Counted from the first letter of the stretch, positions 109 to 11,543 are shown. The stretch: DNA of 11,543 nucleotides from Myxococcota bacterium (GCA_046754165.1 JBHHVG010000054.1:1-11543), one strand, 5' to 3'. The notes: generated by a model from the sequence alone, not told the origin. Translations and numbers: made by a program.

Positions 109-888
109 TCACTTCGACTGCTTGAAGAGGGGAAGGTTCGCCTCGGTGGCGACATAGATCACGTTGGGGTTGTCGTTGAGCGTCTTGATCCAGAGGTACT
201 GGAGGTAGGAGTCCGAGAGCGTCGACCGGACGATCTCTTGCGCGCGGGCGGCGCCCTGTGCGCGCGCGACCTCGATCTCGGCGTCCTTCTCGGCCTGCTG
301 CAGCAGGAACTGCTTCTGTTGCACGGCCTGCTCCGCGGTCAGCTTCGCCTCGATGCTCTCCCGGAAGCGCGAGGGGAGCTTGACGTCCCGCAGCAGCACG
401 TCTTCGACGCGAATGCCTCGAGGCTCGAGGTTGACCGTCAGGAACTCCTTGATCTTCGCCGCGATCTCCTTGCGCCCGACCTCGGAGTAGATGTTCTTGA
501 CCGGGTAGCCGCTCACGACGTCGCGCACCGCGTTCCGAAAGTAGGGAACGACGAGGATGTCCACGTAGTTCCAGCCGACTGTCTTGCGGATCGTCGGCGC
601 CTCCTCCGCGACGACCCGGAAGAGCAACGAGGTGTCGAGGCCCACGATCAGGCCCTCGGAAGACGGCACCTGGGCCGTCTCCTTGAGCTCCTGGAGCTTG
701 ATGTTCCAGGTCTCGATCGTGCGGACCACAGGGAACTGCAGGGCGACCCCCTGCTCCACCGGGTCGTCGGAAATGGATCCGAAGCTCTTCGTCACACCGA
801 CTTCACCATCTTCGATCACGACGCAGCCGGATACCAGCGTCAGCGCTGCGAACAGACCCAGGGCGATGATGGGGGTCAAACGATTCAT
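109..888 (-). CDS. SPFH / band-7 (prohibitin/HflC-like) domain lipoprotein, 259 aa
   Basis: This is the C-terminal part of six-frame ORF 109..2577(-). The ATG is at 888-886, preceded on the minus strand by GGAGGAGGG with a 5-nt spacer. The N-terminus MNRLTPIIALGLFAALTLVSGC is a signal peptide ending in the lipobox LVSGC. The body is an SPFH-like beta/alpha domain followed by a coiled-coil-like tail rich in E/A/Q (AEQAVQQKQFLLQQAEKDAEIEVARAQGAARAQEI), as in HflK/C and prohibitins. The stop TGA (revcomp TCA) is at 109-111. The 5' extension of the ORF beyond 888 is an R/G/A-rich shadow frame overlapping the GT gene. Confidence 0.85.
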   Translation of the reverse strand: MNRLTPIIALGLFAALTLVSGCVVIEDGEVGVTKSFGSISDDPVEQGVALQFPVVRTIETWNIKLQELKETAQVPSSEGLIVGLDTSLLFRVVAEEAPTIRKTVGWNYVDILVVPYFRNAVRDVVSGYPVKNIYSEVGRKEIAAKIKEFLTVNLEPRGIRVEDVLLRDVKLPSRFRESIEAKLTAEQAVQQKQFLLQQAEKDAEIEVARAQGAARAQEIVRSTLSDSYLQYLWIKTLNDNPNVIYVATEANLPLFKQSK

Positions 889-901
889 GGAGTCCCTCCT
901 C

Positions 902-929
902 CGAAAGGCCGATTGAATCTCGCCTTTCG
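902..929 (-). other. Intercistronic stem-loop: 8-bp perfect stem CGAAAGGC / GCCTTTCG with a 12-nt loop. It lies between the GT stop (939-941) and the SPFH Shine-Dalgarno sequence.
   Basis: Read directly: 902-909 cgaaaggc and 922-929 gcctttcg are reverse complements. On the minus-strand mRNA the hairpin ends 1 nt 5' of the GGAGGAGGG ribosome-binding site of the SPFH gene. No U-tract follows, so it is not a canonical intrinsic terminator. It is more likely an mRNA processing, stability or translation-modulating element. Confidence 0.25.
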
Positions 930-938
930 CGCCGGAGC

Positions 939-2609
939 TTACCGCACCAACGCGTCGGAGGGTGGTCGCGTGCGATCTCGCCGGCGAAAGACAGCAATCC
1001 AGGCTGCTCGGTCCGCCTGCTTCCAGGCCAACGGCATCAATCCCGTCGCCTCCGCGCCGCCCGCGAATACGTATCCGTCGCCGTCCGCTGCCGGATGGGC
1101 CACGAGCTCCACGCGATAGGCGCGCTCGAGCATCCGTCGGGTGTGCGTGAAGATCGAGTCTGGTGCCCTCGCCAGCGCGCCGGGCGCCGCTGGGGCGGCG
1201 GAGAGAGAGGTCGCCACATTGACCCAGACCACATAGAGGGGACGCGCCGCGTCCACCTCGGCCGCGACCGTGCGCTGGCGTTCTGGCGCATCCGGGAACG
1301 GCCCCGTGAGGGGGTAGAAGAAGATGTAACGGGAAGCGCTCGGACGACCGGCGTAGAACAGGATCTGTGGCTCGGAGCCGACCACGAAGACCCGATCGTC
1401 CGGATCGCTGCGGCTGCGGATGTGTTCTGCAATCCGCAGCGATTCTGGAAACGGGTTCCCGCCGTAGAGGATGCGGGCGATCCGTTCCGGCGTGTCGGCC
1501 GACAGGATCCAGGCGTTCGCGGCGACCGGCGGACCCACGGCGATCGCGACCAGGGCCCCGAGGCCCAGCACCGCCGCGCCCACGTGCCTTTCGTCGAGCC
1601 ACCGGCACGCCAGGCCACCGAGCGCCACCCCGCCCAAGGCCGCGAGGGACGGCAGCATCTGGATGAAGTAGTGGGGGCGAAAGTACAGCCCCGGCGCGAC
1701 GCCGGCGGCGGATGCCAGCAGCCACAGGCCCAGGAACCAGCGGCTGCGACCCGCACGGCCCGGCGCCATCAGGCCCAACGCGGCGGCGCCCGCGAAGGCC
1801 CCCATGCTCGGCCAGAGCACGCCCGCCGCGTTGACGAGCTCGCTCCACCCGGCTGCGGGCGAGCGGACCAGCGCGTAGCGGAAGTTGTGGAGGAGCACGG
1901 CATCGACGAAGGGGGACCAGGCACCGAGCCATGCGAACAGCCCGAGAACCGGCGCGATCACCGCCACGCCGCCCGCCGCGAGAGCCGCGATCGCGCGCAG
2001 GCGTTCGCCCGGGACGCGGCGCAGCGACGCAAACGCGATCGCCGCGACGAAGGCCGCGTTCGCGACGGCCACCTGTTTGAACAGGCACGCAGCGGCCGCA
2101 GTAGCGCCGCACAGCAGCCACCACCGGGAGGAAGACCCCGCCTCGATCGCCCGCAGCAGACAGAACACGGACGCCACCATCGGCAGCAGCATGAAGATCT
2201 CGGTGTTGGCGGCATTTGCGGTGAGGCGCGGATCGGCGCTCGCCACCGCGAAGATCAGGGCCGCGAAGGCGCCGCTCAAGGATCCGGCGAGTCGTCGCAC
2301 GAGCGCGAACAGCAGCGCGGCGGTCGCGGCGCTCCAGACGTGAAGAAAGAGATGAATGCCCTCGCTGGTCTCGCCGAACGCCGCGAAAGCCACGAGGTAT
2401 GCGACGAAGACTCCTGGCGGCTTCTGGTCGAAGACGTCGCGGTATGGGACATCCCCCGCCTGCATGCGCTGGGCGATATACGCGTACTCGCCCTCGTCGC
2501 GCTCGAGCGGCACCGGGAGCAGCGGAACGCGCAGCAGGATGAAGACCGTGGCCGCGACCGCGAGCACCGCCGCACACGCCCAGAGCGTGGGGGCCGTCTC
2601 CTCCCTCAC
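939..2609 (-). CDS. GT-C fold glycosyltransferase, PMT_2 / ArnT-like family (GT39/GT83; polyprenyl-phosphate-sugar dependent). Multi-pass membrane protein, about 556 aa from the proposed GTG start.
   Basis: Six-frame ORF 939..2783(-). The first TM helix (TLWACAAVLAVAATVFILLRV) is followed in the first extracytoplasmic loop by the GT-C catalytic acidic motif ERDEGEYAYIA and the K-P-P motif (FDQKPPGVFVAY) typical of PMT_2/ArnT proteins. There are about 11 or more further hydrophobic helices and a C-terminal soluble domain. The TAA stop is at 939-941. The start is uncertain. The ATG at 2783 would overlap the divergent lipoprotein gene (2681->) by about 100 nt. I favour the in-frame GTG at 2609-2607 (Val59 of the ORF), which is 8 aa before TM1. 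Confidence 0.8.
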   Translation of the reverse strand: MREETAPTLWACAAVLAVAATVFILLRVPLLPVPLERDEGEYAYIAQRMQAGDVPYRDVFDQKPPGVFVAYLVAFAAFGETSEGIHLFLHVWSAATAALLFALVRRLAGSLSGAFAALIFAVASADPRLTANAANTEIFMLLPMVASVFCLLRAIEAGSSSRWWLLCGATAAAACLFKQVAVANAAFVAAIAFASLRRVPGERLRAIAALAAGGVAVIAPVLGLFAWLGAWSPFVDAVLLHNFRYALVRSPAAGWSELVNAAGVLWPSMGAFAGAAALGLMAPGRAGRSRWFLGLWLLASAAGVAPGLYFRPHYFIQMLPSLAALGGVALGGLACRWLDERHVGAAVLGLGALVAIAVGPPVAANAWILSADTPERIARILYGGNPFPESLRIAEHIRSRSDPDDRVFVVGSEPQILFYAGRPSASRYIFFYPLTGPFPDAPERQRTVAAEVDAARPLYVVWVNVATSLSAAPAAPGALARAPDSIFTHTRRMLERAYRVELVAHPAADGDGYVFAGGAEATGLMPLAWKQADRAAWIAVFRRRDRTRPPSDALVR

Positions 2610-2680
2610 CGCGGCATCGGATGCGGCCGTCACGAGCCGAGGAGCTCCATCGAGAGGGATGCTAGCCTCTTCGCTCCAAG
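2610..2680. promoter_or_regulatory. Short divergent intergenic / promoter region between the GT-C gene (-) and the AP-superfamily lipoprotein operon (+)
   Basis: It is about 70 bp between the proposed starts. It contains the 8-bp palindrome GGAGCTCC (2641-2648) and an imperfect dyad GCATCgGATGC (2614-2624). The GAGGG at 2653-2657 is a possible ribosome-binding site, but its 23-nt spacing to the 2681 ATG is longer than typical. No -10/-35 assignment is attempted in this GC-rich context. Confidence 0.3.
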
Positions 2681-4105
2681 ATGGCGGAAGCGCTCCTCCG
2701 TTCGACTGCACCGGGTAGGACCCAACGGCTCCTACTCTCCCTCCCGCTTCTGCTGGTCGGCTGCACTGGAACGCCTCCGGCACCCCGGATCCTCTTGCTC
2801 GTTAGCGTCGACACCCTGCGCGCGGACCACCTCGGCGCCTACGGGGGCACACTCGGCCTCAGCCCGCGCATCGATGCACTGGCCCTCGAGAGCCTCGTCT
2901 TCGACCGGGCGTACGCCCCGACCTCGTTCACCATGCCGTCCATCAGCAGCCTTCTGACCGGGCGCTACCCGGAGGAGATCGGCGTGCTCGGCAATCGATC
3001 GGCGCTCGCGCCGGACATTCCGACCCTCGCCACCGTGTTGCGAGATCACGGATGGGCGACCGCGGCGGTCGTGAGCAACCTGGTCCTGCGCGCCAACTCG
3101 GGCTTGAGCGAGGGTTTCGATCACTACGACGATGTGCTTCCGGGCCGCGAAGCCACGCGTGAATGGTCCGAACGCATCGCCTCGGGCACGACCGACGCCG
3201 CCATCGACGTCCTCGAGGCACTGCCCGCCGACGAGGACACGCGGCTCTTCCTGTGGGTTCACTACCAGGATCCCCACGGACCCTACACGCCGCCCGATGG
3301 GCTGCGCGAGGCGCTGCTCCCGGAGCAGCGAAGACGCCCGGAAGGCCTGCGCCGCCTGACGCCGGCCGAGGGACGCGGTGTTCGCGGGCGGCTCCCGGCC
3401 TACCAGGAGATCGACGGACAGCGCGAGGTCGCCTTCTACCGCGCGGGATACGCCGCCGAGGTGCAGTATCTCGACCGCGAGTTCGGACGACTGCTCGACG
3501 CGCTCTCGGCTCGCGGGCTTGGCGACACGAGCCTCATCGTCTTCACCGCCGACCACGGCGAGAGCCTCGGTGAGCGGGATTACTGGTTTGGCCACGGCGA
3601 GCTGTTGACCGATCCGCTCGTGCGCGTTCCCCTGATGCTGCGGATCCCCGGAGGCGATGCGGGCCGGCGTTCGGATCTCGTGGCCCAGGTCGATCTCTTC
3701 CCCACGCTGCTGCATCTCCTGGAGGGGGTGGCGATCCCCGCCGACGCACGCGGCCGCGACCTGCTGGAAGCCGATGCAGGCTCCGTGGACAGTCTCCCCT
3801 ACCTGGCCAGCCTCGCGAGCTTCCACACCGCGCGATTCGGGATCGTCCTGGGAAATCACAAGCTGATCCTCGTCGAAACCGAACGCGGCTGGCGCCCGGA
3901 GCTGTACCGCCTGGGGCACGAAGACCGCGAGCTCTCCGATCTCGACCCGGAGCGCACCGAGCGCATGCGCGCCGAGCTGCTGGGGCTGCAGGCCGAGCTC
4001 CAGACCGGGCGGCGGGAGAATCTCCAGCGCTTGAGCGACCGCGATCGAAGAAACCTGGAAGCGCTCGGGTACACCGAGAAGCTTTTGGATCCGGGAGTCG
4101 ATTGA
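2681..4105 (+). CDS. Alkaline-phosphatase-superfamily 'sulfatase-like' (PF00884-type) periplasmic lipoprotein, 474 aa. Thr replaces the Cys/Ser formylglycine nucleophile, so it is probably a phosphoester hydrolase/transferase rather than a true sulfatase.
   Basis: The N-terminus MAEALLRSTAPGRTQRLLLSLPLLLVGC has the lipobox LLVGC. The metal-binding block ILLLVSVDTLRADHLGAYGG aligns with the sulfatase N-terminal block (xxLIxxDDLGxxDLGCYG). The nucleophile region PTSFTMPSISSLLTGRYP aligns with sulfatase C-x-P-x-R-AALLTGRYP, but has T-M-P-S-I in place of C-x-P-x-R. Downstream blocks WVHYQDPHGPY and FTADHGESLGERDYWFGHGE correspond to the conserved K/H and DHG metal-site blocks of the superfamily. 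The TGA stop is at 4103-4105. Confidence 0.85.
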   Translation: MAEALLRSTAPGRTQRLLLSLPLLLVGCTGTPPAPRILLLVSVDTLRADHLGAYGGTLGLSPRIDALALESLVFDRAYAPTSFTMPSISSLLTGRYPEEIGVLGNRSALAPDIPTLATVLRDHGWATAAVVSNLVLRANSGLSEGFDHYDDVLPGREATREWSERIASGTTDAAIDVLEALPADEDTRLFLWVHYQDPHGPYTPPDGLREALLPEQRRRPEGLRRLTPAEGRGVRGRLPAYQEIDGQREVAFYRAGYAAEVQYLDREFGRLLDALSARGLGDTSLIVFTADHGESLGERDYWFGHGELLTDPLVRVPLMLRIPGGDAGRRSDLVAQVDLFPTLLHLLEGVAIPADARGRDLLEADAGSVDSLPYLASLASFHTARFGIVLGNHKLILVETERGWRPELYRLGHEDRELSDLDPERTERMRAELLGLQAELQTGRRENLQRLSDRDRRNLEALGYTEKLLDPGVD

Positions 4106-4112
4106 CGGCGCC

Positions 4113-5537
4113 ATGTCCGCACCTTGCCCGTCCGTCCGGAAGCGCCGATCCGCCCCCGCGCGGATCCGCGCCACGCTGGCCGCGTTCGTTCTCCTGCCCG
4201 CTTGTGCGGGTGAACCGGCGCGACCGAACCTGCTGCTGTTGATCACCGTGGACACGCTGCGCGCAGATCGCCTCGGCGCGTTCGGAAGCTCTCTGGGCCT
4301 CACTCCCAATCTCGACGCGCTCGCCGCCCGAAGCGAAGTGTTCACCGCCGCCTATTCCTCCGCTCCCTTCACGCTTCCGTCCGTCGCCGCGATGATGACG
4401 GGCGCCTCCCCAGAAGAGCTCGGCATCGTCGACAACGAATCGGTGCTCCAGGAGACCTTCCCGACACTCGCGTCCATTCTGTGGGAACGCGGCTGGACCA
4501 CCCGGGGCATCGTGGGAAACTTCATTCTGCGCCACAGCAGCGGTATCGACCGGGGCTTCGAACAGTTCGACGACGACTTCGGCCAGTTCGAAGCGGTGCG
4601 GAAGCTGCCGGAACGCGTCGCGGTTTTCACCACCGAAGGCGCCTTGTCCGGACTCGACCAGTGCTCCGCGGCTCCGGCGACACGCTGTTTCATCTGGGTC
4701 CACTACCAGGACCCCCACGGACCCTACACGGCACCGGGAGAGATCCTCGATGCAGAGCTCGAACGGGGGATCGAGCCGCCGGTGCCGAATCCGAACGTTC
4801 CACTGTCGAAGGACCACCTCGGGGTGGGCGGGCTTCCGACCTATCAGGTGCTCGGCGACCACCGCGACGCCGCCTACTACGTCGCGGCCTACCACGCCGA
4901 GATCCGATACGTCGACCGCGAGATCGGACGACTGCTGGACGGGCTCGCGACCCGCGGGCTCGACGCCAGCTCCGTGATCGCGTTCAGCTCGGATCACGGC
5001 GAAGGCCTGGGCGAAGACGACTACTGGTTCGCCCACGGCGAGTACCTGAGCGACGCATTGGTCCGGGTGCCGCTCATGATCCGGGTCCCCGGACGCCCGC
5101 CTGCGGTGCGAACCGACGTGGCCGCGCTCACGGATCTACCCAAGACACTGCTGTCCGCGGTCGGAGCAACCGCACCGGTGCCGCCGCTGGCCGGCCGGGA
5201 CCTGCTCGGCGACGGCGCCGAGAATTCCGAGAGCCGACCCTACATGGCGAACCTCATCGGAGCGACCGGGATCCGCTTCGGGATCGTCGAAGGGGAGTAC
5301 AAGCTGGTGATCACGATGCGCGACGGCGTCTGGGACGGGCGCCTGACGCGCCGCGGCCGCGACGCCATCGACCTCGCCGGAGCGGCCCCCCAGGTCGCCG
5401 CTCCGATGCGCAAGCACCTGAAGCAGATCCGCGCACGCGTGTCCCAGGGGCCGTCGGAGGTCCGCCAGGACCTGTCCACGCAGGACCGCGACGCCCTGCG
5501 CGCCCTCGGTTATCTCGAATCCGCGGAGGGCCGGTGA
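4113..5537 (+). CDS. Second, tandem paralogous AP-superfamily 'sulfatase-like' lipoprotein, also 474 aa, with Thr at the nucleophile position
   Basis: The ATG is at 4113, 7 nt after the upstream stop. The N-terminus ...ATLAAFVLLPACAG has the lipobox LLPAC. The same blocks are present: LLLLITVDTLRADRLGAFGS, APFTLPSVAAMMTG (T-L-P-S-V at the nucleophile site), WVHYQDPHGPY and FSSDHGEGLGEDDYWFAHGE. It is roughly 45-50% identical to the upstream gene over its full length, and both end in ...LGY(T/L)E.... The TGA stop is at 5535-5537. Confidence 0.85.
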   Translation: MSAPCPSVRKRRSAPARIRATLAAFVLLPACAGEPARPNLLLLITVDTLRADRLGAFGSSLGLTPNLDALAARSEVFTAAYSSAPFTLPSVAAMMTGASPEELGIVDNESVLQETFPTLASILWERGWTTRGIVGNFILRHSSGIDRGFEQFDDDFGQFEAVRKLPERVAVFTTEGALSGLDQCSAAPATRCFIWVHYQDPHGPYTAPGEILDAELERGIEPPVPNPNVPLSKDHLGVGGLPTYQVLGDHRDAAYYVAAYHAEIRYVDREIGRLLDGLATRGLDASSVIAFSSDHGEGLGEDDYWFAHGEYLSDALVRVPLMIRVPGRPPAVRTDVAALTDLPKTLLSAVGATAPVPPLAGRDLLGDGAENSESRPYMANLIGATGIRFGIVEGEYKLVITMRDGVWDGRLTRRGRDAIDLAGAAPQVAAPMRKHLKQIRARVSQGPSEVRQDLSTQDRDALRALGYLESAEGR

Positions 5538-7765
5538 CATCTCGGAGCGGCGAGGGAACACCGCTTCGACGCGCACTCGCGGCGGGACGCTCCCGCGACG
5601 CCGCGATCGCCCTGGCCCTCTGCGCCCTCACCTTCGCCGTCTACTTCCAGGTGCGAAACCACGCGTTCGTCGACTACGACGATCGCGTGTACATCCTCGA
5701 CAACCCCAACCTGCGCGATGGACCGAGCCTGAAGACGATCGCGCGCTCGTTCCGCGAGCCCTACGAGACCAACTGGATCCCCCTGACGTGGGTCTCGCTC
5801 CAGCTGGATCACGCCCTGTTCGGCTCCGAGCCAGCGGGCTACCTGCTCGAGAACGTCGCGTTGCACGCGCTGTCGGCCCTGCTGTTGTACCTGGCGCTTG
5901 CGCGAATGACGGGCGCACGGTGGCCCAGCTGCTTCGTCGCCGCCGTCTTCGCGGTGCACCCCCTTCACGTAGAGAGCGTGGCGTGGGCCGCCGAGCGCAA
6001 GGACACGCTCAGCGGGATGTTCTGGATGGCCACCATGGTCGCCTACGCGCACCACGCCGCGCGTCCGGGGATGGGGCGCATGGCCCTGGTGGCGGCGAGC
6101 TTCTCGGCCGGCTTGATGGCGAAGCCCATGCTGGTCTCGCTGCCCCTGGTACTGCTGCTGCTCGACCACTGGCCGCTGGGCCGGCTCCGACGCGATAAGA
6201 GCGGAGCCTTCCCGCCGGCTGGCGGGCCGCGCCGCGTCCTGCTCGAGAAGCTCCCGCTGTTCGCACTTGCCGGCGCCGCGAGCGCCGTCACCCTCGCTGT
6301 GCAGCGCGCGGCGGGCGCGATGTCCCACGACCACCTGCTGCCGCTGTCGGTGCGGCTGTCGAACGCGGTGGTCTCGTACGCCGCCTACCTCCGCGACAGC
6401 CTCTGGCCGGTCGACCTCGCCGTCTTCTACCCGCACCCGCTCAGCCTGCCGCCGCCCGGGACGCTCCTGGTCGCGTCGTCGCTGCTGGTGGGGATCAGCG
6501 CGCTGGCCCTCCGCTGGGCCGGGACGCGGCCGTACTTCGCCGTGGGTTGGCTGTGGTTCCTCCTGACCCTCGTGCCGGTGATCGGAATCGTGCAGGCCGG
6601 CATGCAGGCCCGCGCCGACCGCTACACCTACCTGCCGCAGATCGGGCTGACGATCGCCGCGGCGTGGGGCGCGCACGAAGCCAGCCGCAGCAGGGCTCTG
6701 CGACGCGTTCTGGCCGCCGTAGGAGCCGGCGCCATCGCCGCGCTGGCGGTCACCGCGTGGAACCAGGTCGGACACTGGCGCGATTCGCGCGCACTGTTCG
6801 CCCGGGCGGTCTCTGTTACGCAAGACAACTTCGTTGCCCATCACGGGCTGGGTGAGGCGCTGCTCGAAGCGGGCGACCCCGAGGCTGCGCTCGCGCAGTT
6901 CCTTCGGGCCCGAGCGATCAAGCCGCGCTGGCCCGATGCCCGCGTCGGTGAGGCGGATGCTCGGCTGGCGCTTGGCCAGCTGGAGCCCGCGCTGGAAGGC
7001 TATCGGCGTGCCCTCGAGCTCGACCCGACGCACGCGACGGCGCTCGCGAAGTCTGGGCGGGCGCTCGCTGCGAGCGGACGGACGGACGAGGCGATCCAGC
7101 ACTACCGACGCGCCCTGCGTCTGTTCGGAGACGCCCCGCCGGCCGCGCTCCACGCCTACCTCGGAGCCGCGTTGGCCGACATCGGGGACGACGCCGGGGC
7201 CGAGCAGCAGTTCGAACGGGCGATCGCGATCCGACCGGATTACGCCCGGGCCCACCACTACCTGGGAATGATGCGGCTGCGGACCGGCCGGTTCTCCGAC
7301 GCCCGCGAGCCCCTGCGGATTGCCGCGTCCCTGCTCGGTGAGTCCGCGGAGCTGCACGCCAGCCAGGCTGCCGCCGCGCGTGGCGCCGGGGACGCCCGTG
7401 CCGCACTGGAGCATTACCGCGCCGCTCGGCGCCTGCGCCCGGGCTGGGAAGTCGCCGCGAACAACCTCGCCTGGATCCTCGCGACCCATCCCGACGCGAA
7501 CATCCGCGACCCAGCGGAAGCGGTCCGCATCGCCGAGACGCTCCAGCGCGCCGGTGGCGCGGCCGATCCGCTCCGGTACGACACGTTGGCCGCGGCCTAC
7601 GCGGCCGCCGGACAGTTCGAGCGCGCCGCGCGAACCGCGGCCGAGGCTGCCCGGCTGGCGCGCCGCGATGGTCCGGAAGACCTCATCGTCCAGATCGAGG
7701 AGCGCGCGGCCGGCTACCGGTCGAACCGGCCTTTCATCGATCCCGAGTGGCTCCGAGGCGACTGA
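5534..7765 (+). CDS. TMTC-like GT-C glycosyltransferase: N-terminal DUF1736-type multi-TM domain (about 400 aa) fused to C-terminal TPR repeats (about 340 aa). About 743 aa in total.
   Basis: This is the 3' part of six-frame ORF 4481..7765(+). Its first ~350 aa are an R/P/G-rich shadow frame overlapping the paralog gene. I propose GTG 5534-5536 as the start. It overlaps the upstream TGA (GTGA coupling), and GGAGG at 5525-5529 gives a 4-nt spacer. TM1 is AIALALCALTFAVYFQV. It is followed by the loop-1 acidic motif AFVDYDDRVYILDNPNL (the GT-C DD motif). Then come ...LLENVALHALSALLLYL... and FAVHPLHVESVAWAAERKDTL, the hallmark P-x-H-V-E-S-V-A-W block of DUF1736/TMTC proteins. From about residue 430 there are at least 8 TPR-like 34-aa units (e.g. 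AHHGLGEALLEAGDPEAALAQFLRARAIKP..., AHHYLGMMRLRTGRFSDA...). The TGA stop is at 7763-7765. Confidence 0.8.
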   Translation: MTSRSGEGTPLRRALAAGRSRDAAIALALCALTFAVYFQVRNHAFVDYDDRVYILDNPNLRDGPSLKTIARSFREPYETNWIPLTWVSLQLDHALFGSEPAGYLLENVALHALSALLLYLALARMTGARWPSCFVAAVFAVHPLHVESVAWAAERKDTLSGMFWMATMVAYAHHAARPGMGRMALVAASFSAGLMAKPMLVSLPLVLLLLDHWPLGRLRRDKSGAFPPAGGPRRVLLEKLPLFALAGAASAVTLAVQRAAGAMSHDHLLPLSVRLSNAVVSYAAYLRDSLWPVDLAVFYPHPLSLPPPGTLLVASSLLVGISALALRWAGTRPYFAVGWLWFLLTLVPVIGIVQAGMQARADRYTYLPQIGLTIAAAWGAHEASRSRALRRVLAAVGAGAIAALAVTAWNQVGHWRDSRALFARAVSVTQDNFVAHHGLGEALLEAGDPEAALAQFLRARAIKPRWPDARVGEADARLALGQLEPALEGYRRALELDPTHATALAKSGRALAASGRTDEAIQHYRRALRLFGDAPPAALHAYLGAALADIGDDAGAEQQFERAIAIRPDYARAHHYLGMMRLRTGRFSDAREPLRIAASLLGESAELHASQAAAARGAGDARAALEHYRAARRLRPGWEVAANNLAWILATHPDANIRDPAEAVRIAETLQRAGGAADPLRYDTLAAAYAAAGQFERAARTAAEAARLARRDGPEDLIVQIEERAAGYRSNRPFIDPEWLRGD

Positions 7766-9206
7766 TCTCTGCCCTCGACTCCCACAGCGAGCCGACACAC
7801 GCCATCACCAGGTTCACGACCAGCCCGATCACGCCGAGGTGGACACCTTCGATGCGCTTTACTCCCAGCACCACACCGCCCACCACGATCGCGCTGCCGA
7901 CCACCAGCCCGGCGAGGGCGGGGCGCGCCTTCAGCCGGCGCCAATGAATCGCCAATAGGAAGGCCGGGGCACACTGGATCAGGAGCTCCATCTTGAGTTC
8001 GATGAGCCCCCACAGCGTGATGCCCCGCGCCCACATGGCGAGCCCGGCCATTGCGACCATCACCACCGCGGCAATCCGCTTGCCCGCCGCGGTGGTCGCG
8101 TCATCGTCTCGCGGGCGATCGAGAACGTCGCCCGCCAGTGTCGAGCCCAACGACAGCAGGCACGAATCCGCGGTCGACATGATCGCGGCCAGCGCACCCA
8201 GGAAGACGAAGGTCGCCGCCGCCGCGTGGGCGGTTCCGGCGTCCGCCCACTGCCCGAGCAGCAGCGGCATCACGCGATCCGCCTCGACCACCCCAAGGCC
8301 GGACAGGCGCGGAATCGCGGCCCAGCCGATCCAGGTGACGACGAGCGTGGTCGTGAGCGGCATGAACGTCATCAGCGCGAGCGAACGGCGCAGGGTCGCC
8401 CCGTCGCGCGCCGCGTAGATCCGTTGGATCGCCTGGGGATAGATCACGCTTGCGATTCCCAGCAGCACGATGGTGCTCGCCCAGTTCGTCTGCTCCACGA
8501 TGCCCGGCACGCGCCCGACCTCGGGCCGAACCTCGAGGACCGCGCGGGTAACCGCCCCGACCCCACCCGCCTCCGCCTGCAGCCACGCCGCCAGCGCCAT
8601 CAGACCCACCAACATCATCACGCCCTGGGCGGCGTCCGTCCAGGCGACGGCGCGCATCCCTCCCAACGTCTCGTAGAAGAGGATCATGGCCGCCAGGATG
8701 ACGATGCCGAGCTCGTAGGGGATGGCGCCGCCCGTCACCTGTGCAGCGAGCTCGCCCATGGCCTTGAGCTGGGCGAAGAGGAAGTTGGCCAGCGCGATCG
8801 ACATCAGCACCGCGACGCCCTGCAGCAGGCCCTTCGCGCCCGGTTCGCCCCGAAATCGGTGTCGCACCCAGTCGCCCGGCGTCACGAACCGATGCCGGAC
8901 AGCCACGGGACGGAGCTTCGGCACGAGCGAGTGGAAGACGACAATGATCGACATCATGAACCCGGTCGCCATGACCCACGAGTAACCGCGGCGGTACCCC
9001 TCGCCCGGGTAGCCGAGCAGCGAGTTCCCGCTGTAGGCGGTGGCGTAGAGCGTGAGGAAGAGCACGAATACGCCGAGCTCACGACCACCGAGGAAATGAT
9101 CGGCAGGCGCGTTGCCACGCCGCGCACGGCGCGCGAACTCCGCGATCGCGAACAGCAGCAGCAGGTAACCCGCGAGACCGACGAGGCCCAGCTGCTCGAG
9201 CTTCAT
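7734..9206 (-). CDS. Sodium:solute symporter family (SSF, TC 2.A.21) transporter, 490 aa. Substrate unknown.
   Basis: There are about 13 hydrophobic helices. The N-terminal region DHFLGGRELGVFVLFLTLYATAYSGNSLLGYPGEGY matches the SSF signature region of PutP/PanF-like transporters (D-x-F-L-A-G-R-x-L-G ... S-G ... G-x-P-G). The ATG is at 9206-9204, with GAGGAG about 15 nt upstream on the minus strand. The stop is at 7734-7736. The gene overlaps the convergent TMTC-like gene end by about 32 nt. Confidence 0.85.
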   Translation of the reverse strand: MKLEQLGLVGLAGYLLLLFAIAEFARRARRGNAPADHFLGGRELGVFVLFLTLYATAYSGNSLLGYPGEGYRRGYSWVMATGFMMSIIVVFHSLVPKLRPVAVRHRFVTPGDWVRHRFRGEPGAKGLLQGVAVLMSIALANFLFAQLKAMGELAAQVTGGAIPYELGIVILAAMILFYETLGGMRAVAWTDAAQGVMMLVGLMALAAWLQAEAGGVGAVTRAVLEVRPEVGRVPGIVEQTNWASTIVLLGIASVIYPQAIQRIYAARDGATLRRSLALMTFMPLTTTLVVTWIGWAAIPRLSGLGVVEADRVMPLLLGQWADAGTAHAAAATFVFLGALAAIMSTADSCLLSLGSTLAGDVLDRPRDDDATTAAGKRIAAVVMVAMAGLAMWARGITLWGLIELKMELLIQCAPAFLLAIHWRRLKARPALAGLVVGSAIVVGGVVLGVKRIEGVHLGVIGLVVNLVMACVGSLWESRAEISRLGATRDR

Positions 9207-9442
9207 CGCGGCCCGGGCTCCTCGGGCGAATCATCGTCCGATACTTCGGCGAGCAACCAGGCGGCGGCGTTCAGCACGGCGACCGCCGCGTAGCAGAGGA
9301 TCGCGACGGCGACCCAGTCGGGGAGGCCATGCCATAGGCGCACCTCCGCGCCGGGGGAGCGGTACCACGGAATCGACACGACGTAGAGCACCGCGATCAC
9401 CGCGAGCAGCGCGCGGCGAAGCTGGCGTCGACCCCGCGTCAC
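9203..9442 (-). CDS. Small two-TM membrane protein (DUF3311-like accessory protein of sodium:solute symporters), about 79 aa
   Basis: This is the C-terminal part of six-frame ORF 9203..9985(-). It has two clear hydrophobic helices, LLAVIAVLYVVSIPWY and WVAVAILCYAAVAVLNAAAWLL, and an acidic tail. Its TGA (9205-9203) overlaps the symporter ATG (9206-9204) as ATGA. The proposed GTG start at 9442-9440 overlaps the SRAP TGA (9441-9439) as GTGA. The alternative ATG at 9487 would give 94 aa and overlap SRAP by 49 nt. The upstream remainder of the ORF is R/G/P-rich shadow sequence. The DUF3311 assignment rests on size, topology and position next to an SSF gene, not on a recognisable motif. Confidence 0.55.
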   Translation of the reverse strand: MTRGRRQLRRALLAVIAVLYVVSIPWYRSPGAEVRLWHGLPDWVAVAILCYAAVAVLNAAAWLLAEVSDDDSPEEPGPR

Positions 9443-10131
9443 AACAGCGATCCCTGGGTGGGCGCCGGAGCGGCCGGAAGGACACATTCTGGGCCGTCGT
9501 TTCGCACGTCGTTCACCATTATTCCCACCGTCCAGGCCGACAGCCACGTCTCCGGACAAGGCGCGAGCAGCGCGCGCATCGCCTGCAGATCGCCACCCTC
9601 GGTTTCGAGCCACGGCGCGTACGCCTGGGGATCCACGATCACCGGCATCCGCTGGTGGATCGGCCGCACCACCGCGTTCGCCACGGTGGTGACGATCGTG
9701 CACGACCGGATCTCCTCGCCATCCGGGGAGATCCAGCTCTCCCAGAGACCGGCGAGGGCGAACAGCGCTCCGTCCGTCCGGGCGACGTGGACCGGCTGCT
9801 TCGGGGGCTCCGTCCCGGACCACTCGTAGAAACCGTCGGCCGGGATCAGGCAGCGCCGTGCTCGAAAGGCGCCGCGGAAGGCCGGCTTCTCCGCGATCGT
9901 CTCCGCCCGCGCGTTGATCAGGCGGTTCCCGATCGACGGGTCCTTCGCCCAGGCGGGGATCAGACCCCAGCTGTGGAGAGCGCACACGCGTCTGCTCCCC
10001 TCGGCACGGATCACGGCGACCGGCTGACCGGGAGCGATGTTGTAACGTGCCTCCAGCTCGGGCGGCAGATCGAGTCCGAATTCATCGGCCACGCTTTCCG
10101 GTGACGCGCGCAATGTGAATCGCCCGCACAA
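9439..10131 (-). CDS. SOS-response-associated peptidase (SRAP / YedK / HMCES-like) abasic-site processing protein, 230 aa
   Basis: The N-terminus is (M)CGRFTL..., with the invariant Cys2 nucleophile. Conserved core blocks are present: NIAPGQPVAVIR, FRARRCLIPADGFYEW (catalytic Glu region) and VANAVVRPIHQRMPVIV (catalytic His). The initiation codon is TTG (10131-10129, revcomp CAA). It has a strong GGAGG ribosome-binding site with a 9-nt spacer on the minus strand. The TGA stop is at 9441-9439. Confidence 0.85.
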   Translation of the reverse strand: MCGRFTLRASPESVADEFGLDLPPELEARYNIAPGQPVAVIRAEGSRRVCALHSWGLIPAWAKDPSIGNRLINARAETIAEKPAFRGAFRARRCLIPADGFYEWSGTEPPKQPVHVARTDGALFALAGLWESWISPDGEEIRSCTIVTTVANAVVRPIHQRMPVIVDPQAYAPWLETEGGDLQAMRALLAPCPETWLSAWTVGIMVNDVRNDGPECVLPAAPAPTQGSLL

Positions 10132-10193: not shown

Positions 10194-11204
10194 TTGAGCG
10201 ATTCCACAGAACGCGCCCGCGTTGGCGGCAAGCTGTCGGTCGTGCTGCGCGGCGCCCTGGGCGGCACCTTGATGGGTCTCGCCAACCTGGTGCCCGGCAT
10301 CAGTGGCGGCACGATGTTGCTCGCCGCGGGCGTCTATCCGGGTTTCATCGAGGCGATCGCAGACCTCACGACCTTCCGCTTCCGCCTGCGGCCCGTGCTG
10401 CTGCTGGGGACGATCGTCGCGGCGGCCGCCTTCGGCATCCTGTTGCTCGCGGGCACCGTCAAGTCCCTCGTCGTCGAGCACCGCTGGATCATGTACAGCC
10501 TGTTCATTGGCCTGACCCTGGGCGGCGTGCCGCTGGTGTGGCGCATGGCGCGCCCGGCAACGCCCGCCCTCTCTGCCGGCTGCGTCGTCGCCTTCGGTCT
10601 CATGCTCGCGATGGCCCTCGGCGGCCCGGCGGCGAGCGCCGGGGGGACCAGCATGCTCCTGACGTTTGCGGCCGGTCTCGCCGCCTCCTCTGCGATGATC
10701 CTGCCCGGCGTGAGCGGCGGCTACCTGCTGCTCCTGCTGGGCCAGTACGAGACGATCTTGGGGACCGTCGATCAGCTCAAACGGGGGCTGCTCGGCGACG
10801 GCGCCGCCGGGCCCGACGTGTCGCTGGTCCTCGACGCCATGACCGTGGTGCTCCCCCTCGGTCTCGGCATCGTGGTCGGCGTGGCCGGCGTGAGCAATCT
10901 GCTGAAGTGGCTGTTGCACCGCTACGAGAAGGCGACACTCGGGGCCCTTCTGGGCCTGCTCTTCGGAGCGGTCATCGGACTCTGGCCCTTCCAACAGGGA
11001 ACCACTCCGGAGATCGGAGACACGATCAAGGGCCGAGTCGTCGCCGAGGACAACCTCGCGGAGTTCGCCCCGGAGGACTGGCCGGTGCGGAGCTTCGATC
11101 CCAGCTTCGGACAGGCCGCCGGAGCCGCGGGACTGGTCGTCCTGGGACTGTCGGCCACGCTGCTGATCGGTCGCCTCGGCGGTGGAGATGGAGACGCGGC
11201 CTAG
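10194..11204 (+). CDS. DUF368 family membrane protein (PopT-like polyprenyl/undecaprenyl-phosphate translocase family), 336 aa
   Basis: The TTG start is at 10194, with GGGGAG 7 nt upstream. There are two internal repeats of the DUF368 signature: LRGALGGTLMGLANLVPGISGGTMLLAAG in the N-terminal half and SAMILPGVSGGYLLLLLGQYE in the C-terminal half. This matches the inverted-repeat architecture of the family. There are about 8 or more hydrophobic helices. The TAG stop is at 11202-11204. Confidence 0.85.
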   Translation: MSDSTERARVGGKLSVVLRGALGGTLMGLANLVPGISGGTMLLAAGVYPGFIEAIADLTTFRFRLRPVLLLGTIVAAAAFGILLLAGTVKSLVVEHRWIMYSLFIGLTLGGVPLVWRMARPATPALSAGCVVAFGLMLAMALGGPAASAGGTSMLLTFAAGLAASSAMILPGVSGGYLLLLLGQYETILGTVDQLKRGLLGDGAAGPDVSLVLDAMTVVLPLGLGIVVGVAGVSNLLKWLLHRYEKATLGALLGLLFGAVIGLWPFQQGTTPEIGDTIKGRVVAEDNLAEFAPEDWPVRSFDPSFGQAAGAAGLVVLGLSATLLIGRLGGGDGDAA

Positions 11205-11412: not shown

Positions 11413-11543
11413 ATGCGACGCCGAAAAACGATTTCCGCCCGAGCCGTGCGAGTCGCACTCTCGCTTCTCGCAGCGAGCTCGCTCGGCTGCTTCGCCTACG
11501 GCCACGGCGACACGCACGTCACGGAGACGCCGATCGTCAACAC
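11413..11543 (+). CDS. Putative lipoprotein, 3'-truncated by the window end; function unknown
   Basis: ATG at 11413 is preceded by GAGGGAG (11403-11409). The N-terminus MRRRKTISARAVRVALSLLAASSLGCFAYGHGDTHVTETPIVN has a positively charged n-region, a hydrophobic core and the lipobox SSLGC. Only 43 codons are visible. Confidence 0.5.
   Translation, partial: MRRRKTISARAVRVALSLLAASSLGCFAYGHGDTHVTETPIVN

Follow-up and report, generated by a model that had tools for sequence, protein, structure and literature searches.

A Myxococcota gene cluster combining a TMTC-related glycosyltransferase with threonine-type sulfatase-fold lipoproteins, and its possible role in periplasmic envelope modification

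We analyzed a window of 11,543 bp, a complete contig from the metagenome-assembled genome (MAG) of an uncultured member of the Myxococcota, in which two genes for GT-C glycosyltransferases flank a tandem pair of genes for lipoproteins of the alkaline phosphatase (AP) superfamily. Judging from its sequence, the product of the gene at 5534..7765 (plus strand) is most likely a GT-C glycosyltransferase related to the eukaryotic TMTC proteins and ending in a tetratricopeptide repeat (TPR) domain, while the two lipoproteins encoded directly upstream of it (A, 2681..4105, and B, 4113..5537, both plus strand) have a sulfatase fold with a threonine at the nucleophile position. Elsewhere, the same two parts occur fused within single proteins, which suggests that the lipoproteins work with the TMTC-like glycosyltransferase. 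We therefore tentatively read the block as a set of envelope-modifying enzymes on the periplasmic side, in which glycosylation may be coupled to phosphoester chemistry, a reading that we think could nearly as easily be right as wrong. With a GC content of 63–75%, the window contains many spurious long open reading frames (ORFs), and the real genes were picked using matches to Pfam and NCBIfam. In what follows, L-numbers denote the related loci that were compared, P-numbers denote protein clusters, and residue numbers refer to the proteins of the window.

The TMTC-like protein (743 aa) consists of a polytopic membrane domain with approximately 11 transmembrane (TM) helices (residues 1–414, nt 5534–6775), followed by a TPR superhelix of about 9 repeats (residues 418–729, nt 6785–7720), with Pfam TPR matches over residues about 430–655. 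An AlphaFold model based on 63 homologues (pLDDT 92.9, pTM 0.86) likewise has about 11 TM helices and then a TPR superhelix, and the odd number of TM helices together with the Arg-rich N-terminus places the repeats on the non-cytoplasmic, presumably periplasmic, side. Three groups of residues are invariant among the 63 homologues: the putative catalytic acidic pair D49/D50 (nt 5678–5683), H142/P143/E147, and A361/R363/Y364. Human TMTC3/4, which we rebuilt from the supplement of PMC7801869 and compared with the window protein by BLASTP, hhalign and MAFFT, have the same residues at the positions of D49/D50, H142/P143/E147, A361 and R363. BLASTP aligned the window protein to TMTC3 with an E-value of 3e-15 (29% identity over 132 residues), with a second segment that covers ADRY/AERV, and hhalign gave a probability of 97.7%. 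TMTC3 is the best characterized relative by sequence, sequence searches find no GT-C enzyme in the PDB, and the nearest structures by fold are Pmt4 and Pmt2. In the TMTCs, the DD after TM1 and the Arg of AERV are the residues connected with catalysis and lipid-phosphate binding (PMC7801869).

A preliminary description of this locus had already called the protein TMTC-like with TPRs and had further assigned it the DUF1736 domain. The 11 TM helices, the repeats and the similarity to TMTC3 bear out the former, so that the idea of a TMTC-related enzyme survives without DUF1736. The DUF1736 label itself is wrong, since PF08409 is not matched by the window protein in Pfam even at E ≤ 10 and is carried by none of its 120 closest homologues, whereas a fragment of human TMTC3, used as a positive control against the same library, matches it with an E-value of 1e-31. 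Like TMTC1–4 (CAZy family GT105, eukaryotic protein O-mannosyltransferases), the window protein has an N-terminal GT-C domain of 11 TM helices followed by non-cytoplasmic TPRs, and it has in common with them the DD after TM1 and the motifs FAVHPxHxE, R..D/E and A(E/D)R(V/Y).Y.P. In contrast to them, it has neither the DUF1736/EL4 loop nor the DW motif, this region does not align, and the SHKSYRP His/Lys of the TMTCs is replaced by YETNWIP. Moreover, association with an AP-superfamily domain, through linkage or fusion, is a feature of the bacterial TMTC-like protein that the TMTCs lack, and, as the host is a bacterium, the sugar carrier would be undecaprenyl-phosphate rather than dolichyl-phosphate.

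The preliminary description also regarded the bacterial homologues as functionally uncharacterized, thereby overlooking TfpW of Pseudomonas aeruginosa, a genetically characterized pilin O-arabinofuranosyl transferase that combines 11 TM helices and a DDX motif with a TPR domain in the periplasm. The likeness of TfpW to the window protein, as drawn from its description, lies in this architecture; tfpW adjoins pilA, whereas there is no pilin gene at this locus, and no AP-superfamily partner has been reported for TfpW. Within the TMTC-like sequence family proper, our literature searches found no experimentally characterized bacterial member, and the family is large: when the membrane domain alone is searched, 69,207 cluster representatives are retrieved at a threshold of E ≤ 1e-3, and 16,537 when it is tightened to E ≤ 1e-30. 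Tandem arrays of 3 to 4 TMTC-like genes were observed in L014 and L015 (Desulfobacterales and other MAGs).

The second half of the proposed pairing is formed by lipoproteins A and B, which are 44% identical paralogues that both match PF00884 (Pfam E-values of 5e-41 for A and 4.6e-39 for B). Their signal peptides end in a lipobox, LLLVGC28 in A (Cys28 at 2762–2764) and LLPAC31 in B (Cys31 at 4203–4205), and within the family the conservation of the lipobox Cys column reaches at least 90%; the assignment as lipoproteins was made by inspection of the signal peptide and this conserved Cys. The ATG at 2681 is the better start for A, because its homologues of about 472 aa keep the N-terminus and the lipobox Cys; the NCBI gene model (P0121, 436 aa) starts at a TTG at 2795, removing the signal peptide (2681–2797). 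Both lipoproteins have the alpha/beta fold of sulfatases with its N-terminal metal site, which lies near the S1 sulfatases, but also near the Thr-type enzymes YejM, LtaS/LtaP, EptC, EptA and MCR-1.

S1 formylglycine sulfatases are the best matches to the lipoproteins in sequence and fold, with the same metal ligands (Asp, Asp-His) and the PH.P histidine in common. The differences concern the catalytic center: the nucleophilic Cys/Ser is a Thr, the Arg of CxPxR is an Ile, Val or His, and the Lys of the “KH” motif is a Gly or Ala. Aligned to the arylsulfatase 6hhm, for example, the formylglycine Cys is replaced by Thr, the CxPxR Arg by Ile and the “KH” Lys by Gly, and the S1 signature C/S-x-P-x-R reads T-M-P-S-I in A and T-L-P-S-V in B. 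The putative nucleophiles are Thr84 in A (2930–2932) and Thr87 in B (4371–4373), and a Thr occupies this position in all 104 ORFs of the family that were collected from genomes and metagenomes. D44, R47, D49, H199, D291, H292, E294 and H305 are each shared by 100 or more of these 104 ORFs, B carries the same catalytic residue set as A, and the NCBIfam models for EptA/MCR/LtaS align over the DHGE...H region of the lipoproteins. As the oxidizable Cys/Ser is a Thr, the lipoproteins are unable to form formylglycine, and given the loss of both the sulfatase Cys and Arg and the Thr in 104/104 relatives, they have the fold of sulfatases, yet cannot be sulfatases. By their aligned residues, whose equivalence to those of Thr-type enzymes is taken from the alignment, A and B fall among the Thr-type proteins of the AP superfamily and show the residue pattern of phosphoryl-transfer enzymes, in agreement with the earlier assignment. 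The Thr-type enzymes EptA/MCR, LtaS and GacH have a TM domain, whereas A and B lack an N-terminal multi-TM, donor-presenting domain, and their catalytic domain is preceded by a lipoprotein signal peptide only. Literature searches on Thr-type sulfatase-like lipoproteins and on LIC11990 returned nothing specific. We considered whether a conserved C-terminal “LGY” tail docks onto the TPR domain, and dropped this candidate as the tail does not correlate with GT-C adjacency: 81 of the 104 family members have it regardless of GT-C proximity, and several GT-C-adjacent members (L088, L089, L094) are without it.

Translation of the three plus-strand genes, which lie very close together, is probably coupled. 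The stop codon of A (TGA, 4103–4105) is separated from the ATG of B at 4113 by a gap of 7 nt (4106–4112), and the stop codon of B overlaps the GTG start of the TMTC-like gene in the sequence GTGA (5534–5537); the genes lie where they had been placed previously, and the gap and overlap given for this block are exact in the sequence. Evidence that the encoded proteins belong together comes from three protein clusters (P0077, P0086 and P0362) in which a TMTC-like membrane domain, a TPR domain and a Thr-type sulfatase-fold domain are fused, in that order. The genomic contexts of these fusions contain neither PMT_2 nor DUF368. The fusion gene of P0077 (L133 4594–6393, minus strand) is convergent with, and overlaps, a gene for a GT-C of the YfhO family.

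In addition, the separate genes are linked repeatedly. L127 and L130 repeat the exact five-gene layout of the window, as does L126 as far as its contig extends, and all three have orthologous tandem pairs of A and B; L127 shares both the 7-nt gap and the 4-nt overlap with the window, L126 shares the gap, and L130 the overlap. L042–44 and L128/129 have versions with a single lipoprotein. Linkage further appears in other arrangements: in L016, a TMTC-like gene lies between a divergent lipoprotein gene and one downstream of it, flanked by UvrD and GGDEF genes; in L068, a TMTC-like and a PMT_2 gene are divergent from a lipoprotein gene; L094 has a divergent pair, L088 and L089 have further pairings, and in L075 a PMT_2 gene is divergent from a lipoprotein gene at 30–36% identity. 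According to the preliminary description, the locus formed one functional unit, an idea to be given up if related genomes lacked conserved co-localization. As co-localization is conserved in relatives, that refutation fails, and the fusions and the recurrent layout speak for a unit, while each of its components is missing in some close relatives. The linkage of the lipoproteins with the GT-C enzymes is real, but it is not obligate.

These observations bear on the possibility that the lipoproteins are ordinary periplasmic scavenging phosphodiesterases or phosphatases, or else clients of the TMTC-like enzyme, that is, substrates of its glycosylation. The family is large, and its members are often solitary or arranged in catabolic-style tandem arrays (4 copies in L114/L115 and 3 in L123, all with no GT-C gene nearby). 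Their nucleophile motif, TxPS[H/hydrophobic]..TG.YPE..G...N, resembles that of the NPP phosphodiesterases (TFPNH..TG.YPE.HG...N), and they also match the Pfam family Phosphodiest with E-values of 1e-14 to 1e-18. A scavenging role makes the fusion to a TPR C-terminus and the translational coupling hard to explain, and the lipoproteins have no Ser/Thr-rich linker or other sign of being a glycosylation substrate, so that we regard this explanation in either version as improbable.

Several observations weigh against a joint function of the lipoproteins and the glycosyltransferases. Within the same genomic backbone, L001 has the divergent PMT_2 and TMTC-like genes without either lipoprotein, L047 and L052 have the divergent PMT_2 and lipoprotein genes without the TMTC-like gene, and L132 keeps one lipoprotein only, both GT-C genes being missing. 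Only 10 out of 80 metagenome loci anchored on the lipoprotein have a GT-C gene within 1.5 kb, a neighbor that is found at only 3/30 lipoprotein loci for which 2 kb or more of sequence is available on either side, and a lipoprotein gene is nearby at only 2 of the 41 genome loci of TMTC-like genes; the lipoprotein and TMTC-like families also each form tandem arrays alone. Regarding the chemistry, the EL4 loop (DUF1736, DW motif) and the SHKSYRP His/Lys of the TMTCs are not conserved, the lipoproteins have no TM domain of the kind that gives EptA and LtaS access to their lipid donors, and the window contains no gene for the synthesis of a polyprenyl-phosphate-sugar donor. Activities, donor and acceptor of the block are, finally, things that we infer.

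The variable gene content would be accounted for if the genes were neighbors by descent, i.e., independent envelope enzymes with no shared substrate that occupy a variable slot in a conserved backbone (Band_7 ... SSF-SRAP-DUF368-lipoprotein-CAP) of one Myxococcota lineage. In line with this, SSF and SRAP, genes with no functional relation to the others, keep the same order, and the slot is filled in different combinations: PMT_2 with the TMTC-like gene (L001), PMT_2 with the sulfatase-fold gene (L047, L052), the latter alone (L132), or all three (the window, L042–44 and L127–130, and L126 as far as its contig reaches), while elsewhere most members of these families are unlinked. Against shared descent alone stand three independent fusion clusters, a linkage that reappears in unrelated contexts and orientations (L016, L068, L094) and the conserved close spacing (the gap in L126 and L127, the overlap in L127 and L130), and by rough reasoning an adjacency of about 10% is far above chance for two families with a few copies per genome. 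We consider it unlikely that descent is the whole explanation.

On the minus strand, the ORF at 939–2783 holds the second GT-C enzyme, of the ArnT/PMT_2 type (Pfam PMT_2 E-value of 5.9e-14; PF13231 53 bits against a cut-off of 26). The NCBI model (939..2633, 564 aa) names it an “ArnT family glycosyltransferase” and starts it at the GTG at 2633, with an alternative GTG at 2609. The protein has an “ERDEGEY” motif with an acidic pair, D46/E47, that is invariant in 40 PMT_2 homologues, as well as a conserved C-terminal periplasmic domain; together with the invariant D49/D50 of the TMTC-like protein, this substantiates the earlier call of two GT-C enzymes. A search of the PDB with the PMT_2 profile gave no sequence at E ≤ 1, ArnT (5ezm) included, and Pfam and NCBIfam detected none of the genes of the 4-amino-4-deoxy-L-arabinose (Ara4N, arn) pathway in the window. 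Depending on the start codon, the spacer between this gene and that of lipoprotein A is 47 bp (2634..2680, as read directly from the sequence) or 71 bp long, and it ranges from 15 to 143 bp among relatives according to their gene calls. The divergent promoter region of about 70 bp that had been proposed here is matched in length by the longer spacer, but a scan of 800–8000, itself uninformative, found no sigma-70-like promoter and no terminator above chance.

The minus-strand arm probably also includes the gene of an SPFH/Band_7 lipoprotein (109..897, minus strand; Pfam Band_7 E-value of 1.1e-30; signal peptide ending in LVSGC), which follows the PMT_2 gene after 41 nt in the same orientation and falls outside the block originally delimited. 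It adjoins the PMT_2 orthologue in L001, L042, L043, L047, L052, L126, L127 and L130, and so accompanies PMT_2 more consistently than DUF368 accompanies any gene here. In L042, the Band_7 gene is located between two PMT_2 genes, with overlapping ends. Additional GT-C genes, encoding STT3/AglB-like and PMT-like proteins and one or two weak PMT_2 proteins, were observed beyond the equivalent of the window's left end in L042 (1–8539), L128 (1–8425), L043 (1–8360) and L127 (246–2159).

The four proteins of the originally delimited block are all predicted to reside at the periplasmic side, as had been supposed. From the observed gene order, folds, conserved catalytic residues, fusions and recurrent linkage, we infer activities, a donor, an acceptor and an order of steps. 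The TMTC-related GT-C would take a sugar from a polyprenyl-phosphate carrier and pass it to an acceptor held by the periplasmic TPR superhelix, most likely Ser/Thr residues of a protein, by analogy with TMTC1–4 and TfpW. The lipoproteins, placed close to the TPR domain or, in the fusions, joined to it, would most likely cleave a phosphodiester via a phospho-Thr intermediate, and may add a phosphoester substituent to the same substrate, its product or the lipid carrier, or remove one. The divergent ArnT-like GT-C, with the SPFH lipoprotein, may put a further sugar on the same or a related acceptor.

GT-C enzymes and AP-superfamily phospho-transferases form pairs in several known systems, such as ArnT/EptA (decoration of lipid A), GacL/GacH (group A carbohydrate), YfhO/LtaS (lipoteichoic acid), and the mannosyltransferases PIG-M/V/B with the ethanolamine-phosphate transferases PIG-N/O/G in the assembly of glycosylphosphatidylinositol (GPI) anchors. 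A GT-C bearing TPRs, a soluble lipoprotein partner and a fusion of the GT-C and AP domains are absent from all of them. Instead of a protein, the target might be a lipid or glycan of the envelope, of the lipid A/lipopolysaccharide type or an exopolysaccharide, in a decoration system that operates like ArnT plus EptA or GacL plus GacH and uses the TPR domain as a periplasmic scaffold. The annotation of the minus-strand enzyme as ArnT family points in this direction, as does the proximity of the lipoprotein fold to YejM/PbgA, LtaS and EptC, whose targets are lipids or glycopolymers. Downstream in L042 there are genes for a GT2 protein, a methyltransferase and a Polysacc_deac_1 protein, the first and last belonging to the Pfam families of ArnC and ArnD, and the fusion locus L133 adjoins a gene for YfhO, a GT-C family known from the glycosylation of lipoteichoic acid. 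On the other hand, proteins are the substrates of the nearest characterized comparators of the TMTC-like enzyme, whether by sequence (TMTC3), fold (Pmt4/Pmt2) or architecture (TfpW), a TM domain for the uptake of a lipid donor is lacking in the lipoproteins, and neither arn nor ept pathway genes are present within the window. A lipid or glycan target appears doubtful to us.

The most far-reaching version of the coupled glycosylation and phosphoester chemistry that we propose would be a bacterial “glycan plus phosphoester” pathway of protein modification, in which a TMTC-type O-glycosyltransferase acts together with soluble, lipid-anchored Thr-nucleophile AP enzymes and the TPR domain holds both the acceptor protein and the phosphoryl-transfer enzyme, the latter being fused to it in some species. 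In this specific form, we consider the proposal a long shot. If true, prokaryotes would possess an analogue of phospho-modified O-mannose, or of the way in which GT-C enzymes and ethanolamine-phosphate transferases take turns in GPI assembly, and the bacterial TMTC-like family, with its ~69,000 sequence clusters, would gain a first functional handle.

Downstream of the block, the 3′ end of the TMTC-like gene overlaps that of a convergent SSF symporter gene (7734–9206, minus strand) by 32 nt (7734–7765), and by gene calls the overlap is likewise 32 nt in L127 and L130, and 34 nt in L042. The SSF gene is followed by a small ORF encoding a hydrophobic membrane protein of ~80 aa (~9203–9445, minus strand), of which counterparts of 73–86 aa are called in all related loci, and by an SRAP gene (9439–10131, minus strand); SSF and SRAP were assigned by Pfam/NCBIfam, and Pfam gave nothing significant for the small ORF or for the conserved unknown neighbors. 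Next is a gene for a putative DUF368/PopT-like polyprenyl-phosphate transporter (10194..11204, plus strand), which matches PF04018 with an E-value of 4e-42 (145 bits against a cut-off of 26) but scores 103–107 bits with the NCBIfam PopT/VCA0040 models, below their cut-off of 400. A further lipoprotein gene (11413–11543, plus strand), whose product begins MRRRKTISARAVRVALSLLAASSLGC, is truncated where the contig stops; in relatives, DUF368 is followed by a gene for a protein of 411–559 aa without a Pfam family, and this in turn by a gene for a CAP-domain protein.

The nearby DUF368 gene had been taken as one of the signs of a functional unit, but we reject it as a part of the unit: its support is the synteny of the whole block, and SSF and SRAP, which are unrelated genes, are conserved just as DUF368 is. 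SSF, the small ORF and SRAP, all on the minus strand, part it from the cluster, and there is no DUF368 match in L016, L022 and L056. With the DUF1736 label and the DUF368 link set aside, what the preliminary description observed is confirmed, and its interpretation as a whole is partly supported.

Should the pairing not be confirmed, the cluster would represent a variable set of envelope enzymes of one uncultured lineage. The analysis defines a large Thr-type branch of PF00884 whose members are currently named “sulfatase” or “arylsulfatase” by annotation pipelines. The fusion and the conserved operon provide a concrete and testable pairing of enzymes, and, if it is confirmed, the logic of TMTC-type O-glycosylation would extend to bacteria and a widespread mis-annotation would be corrected.

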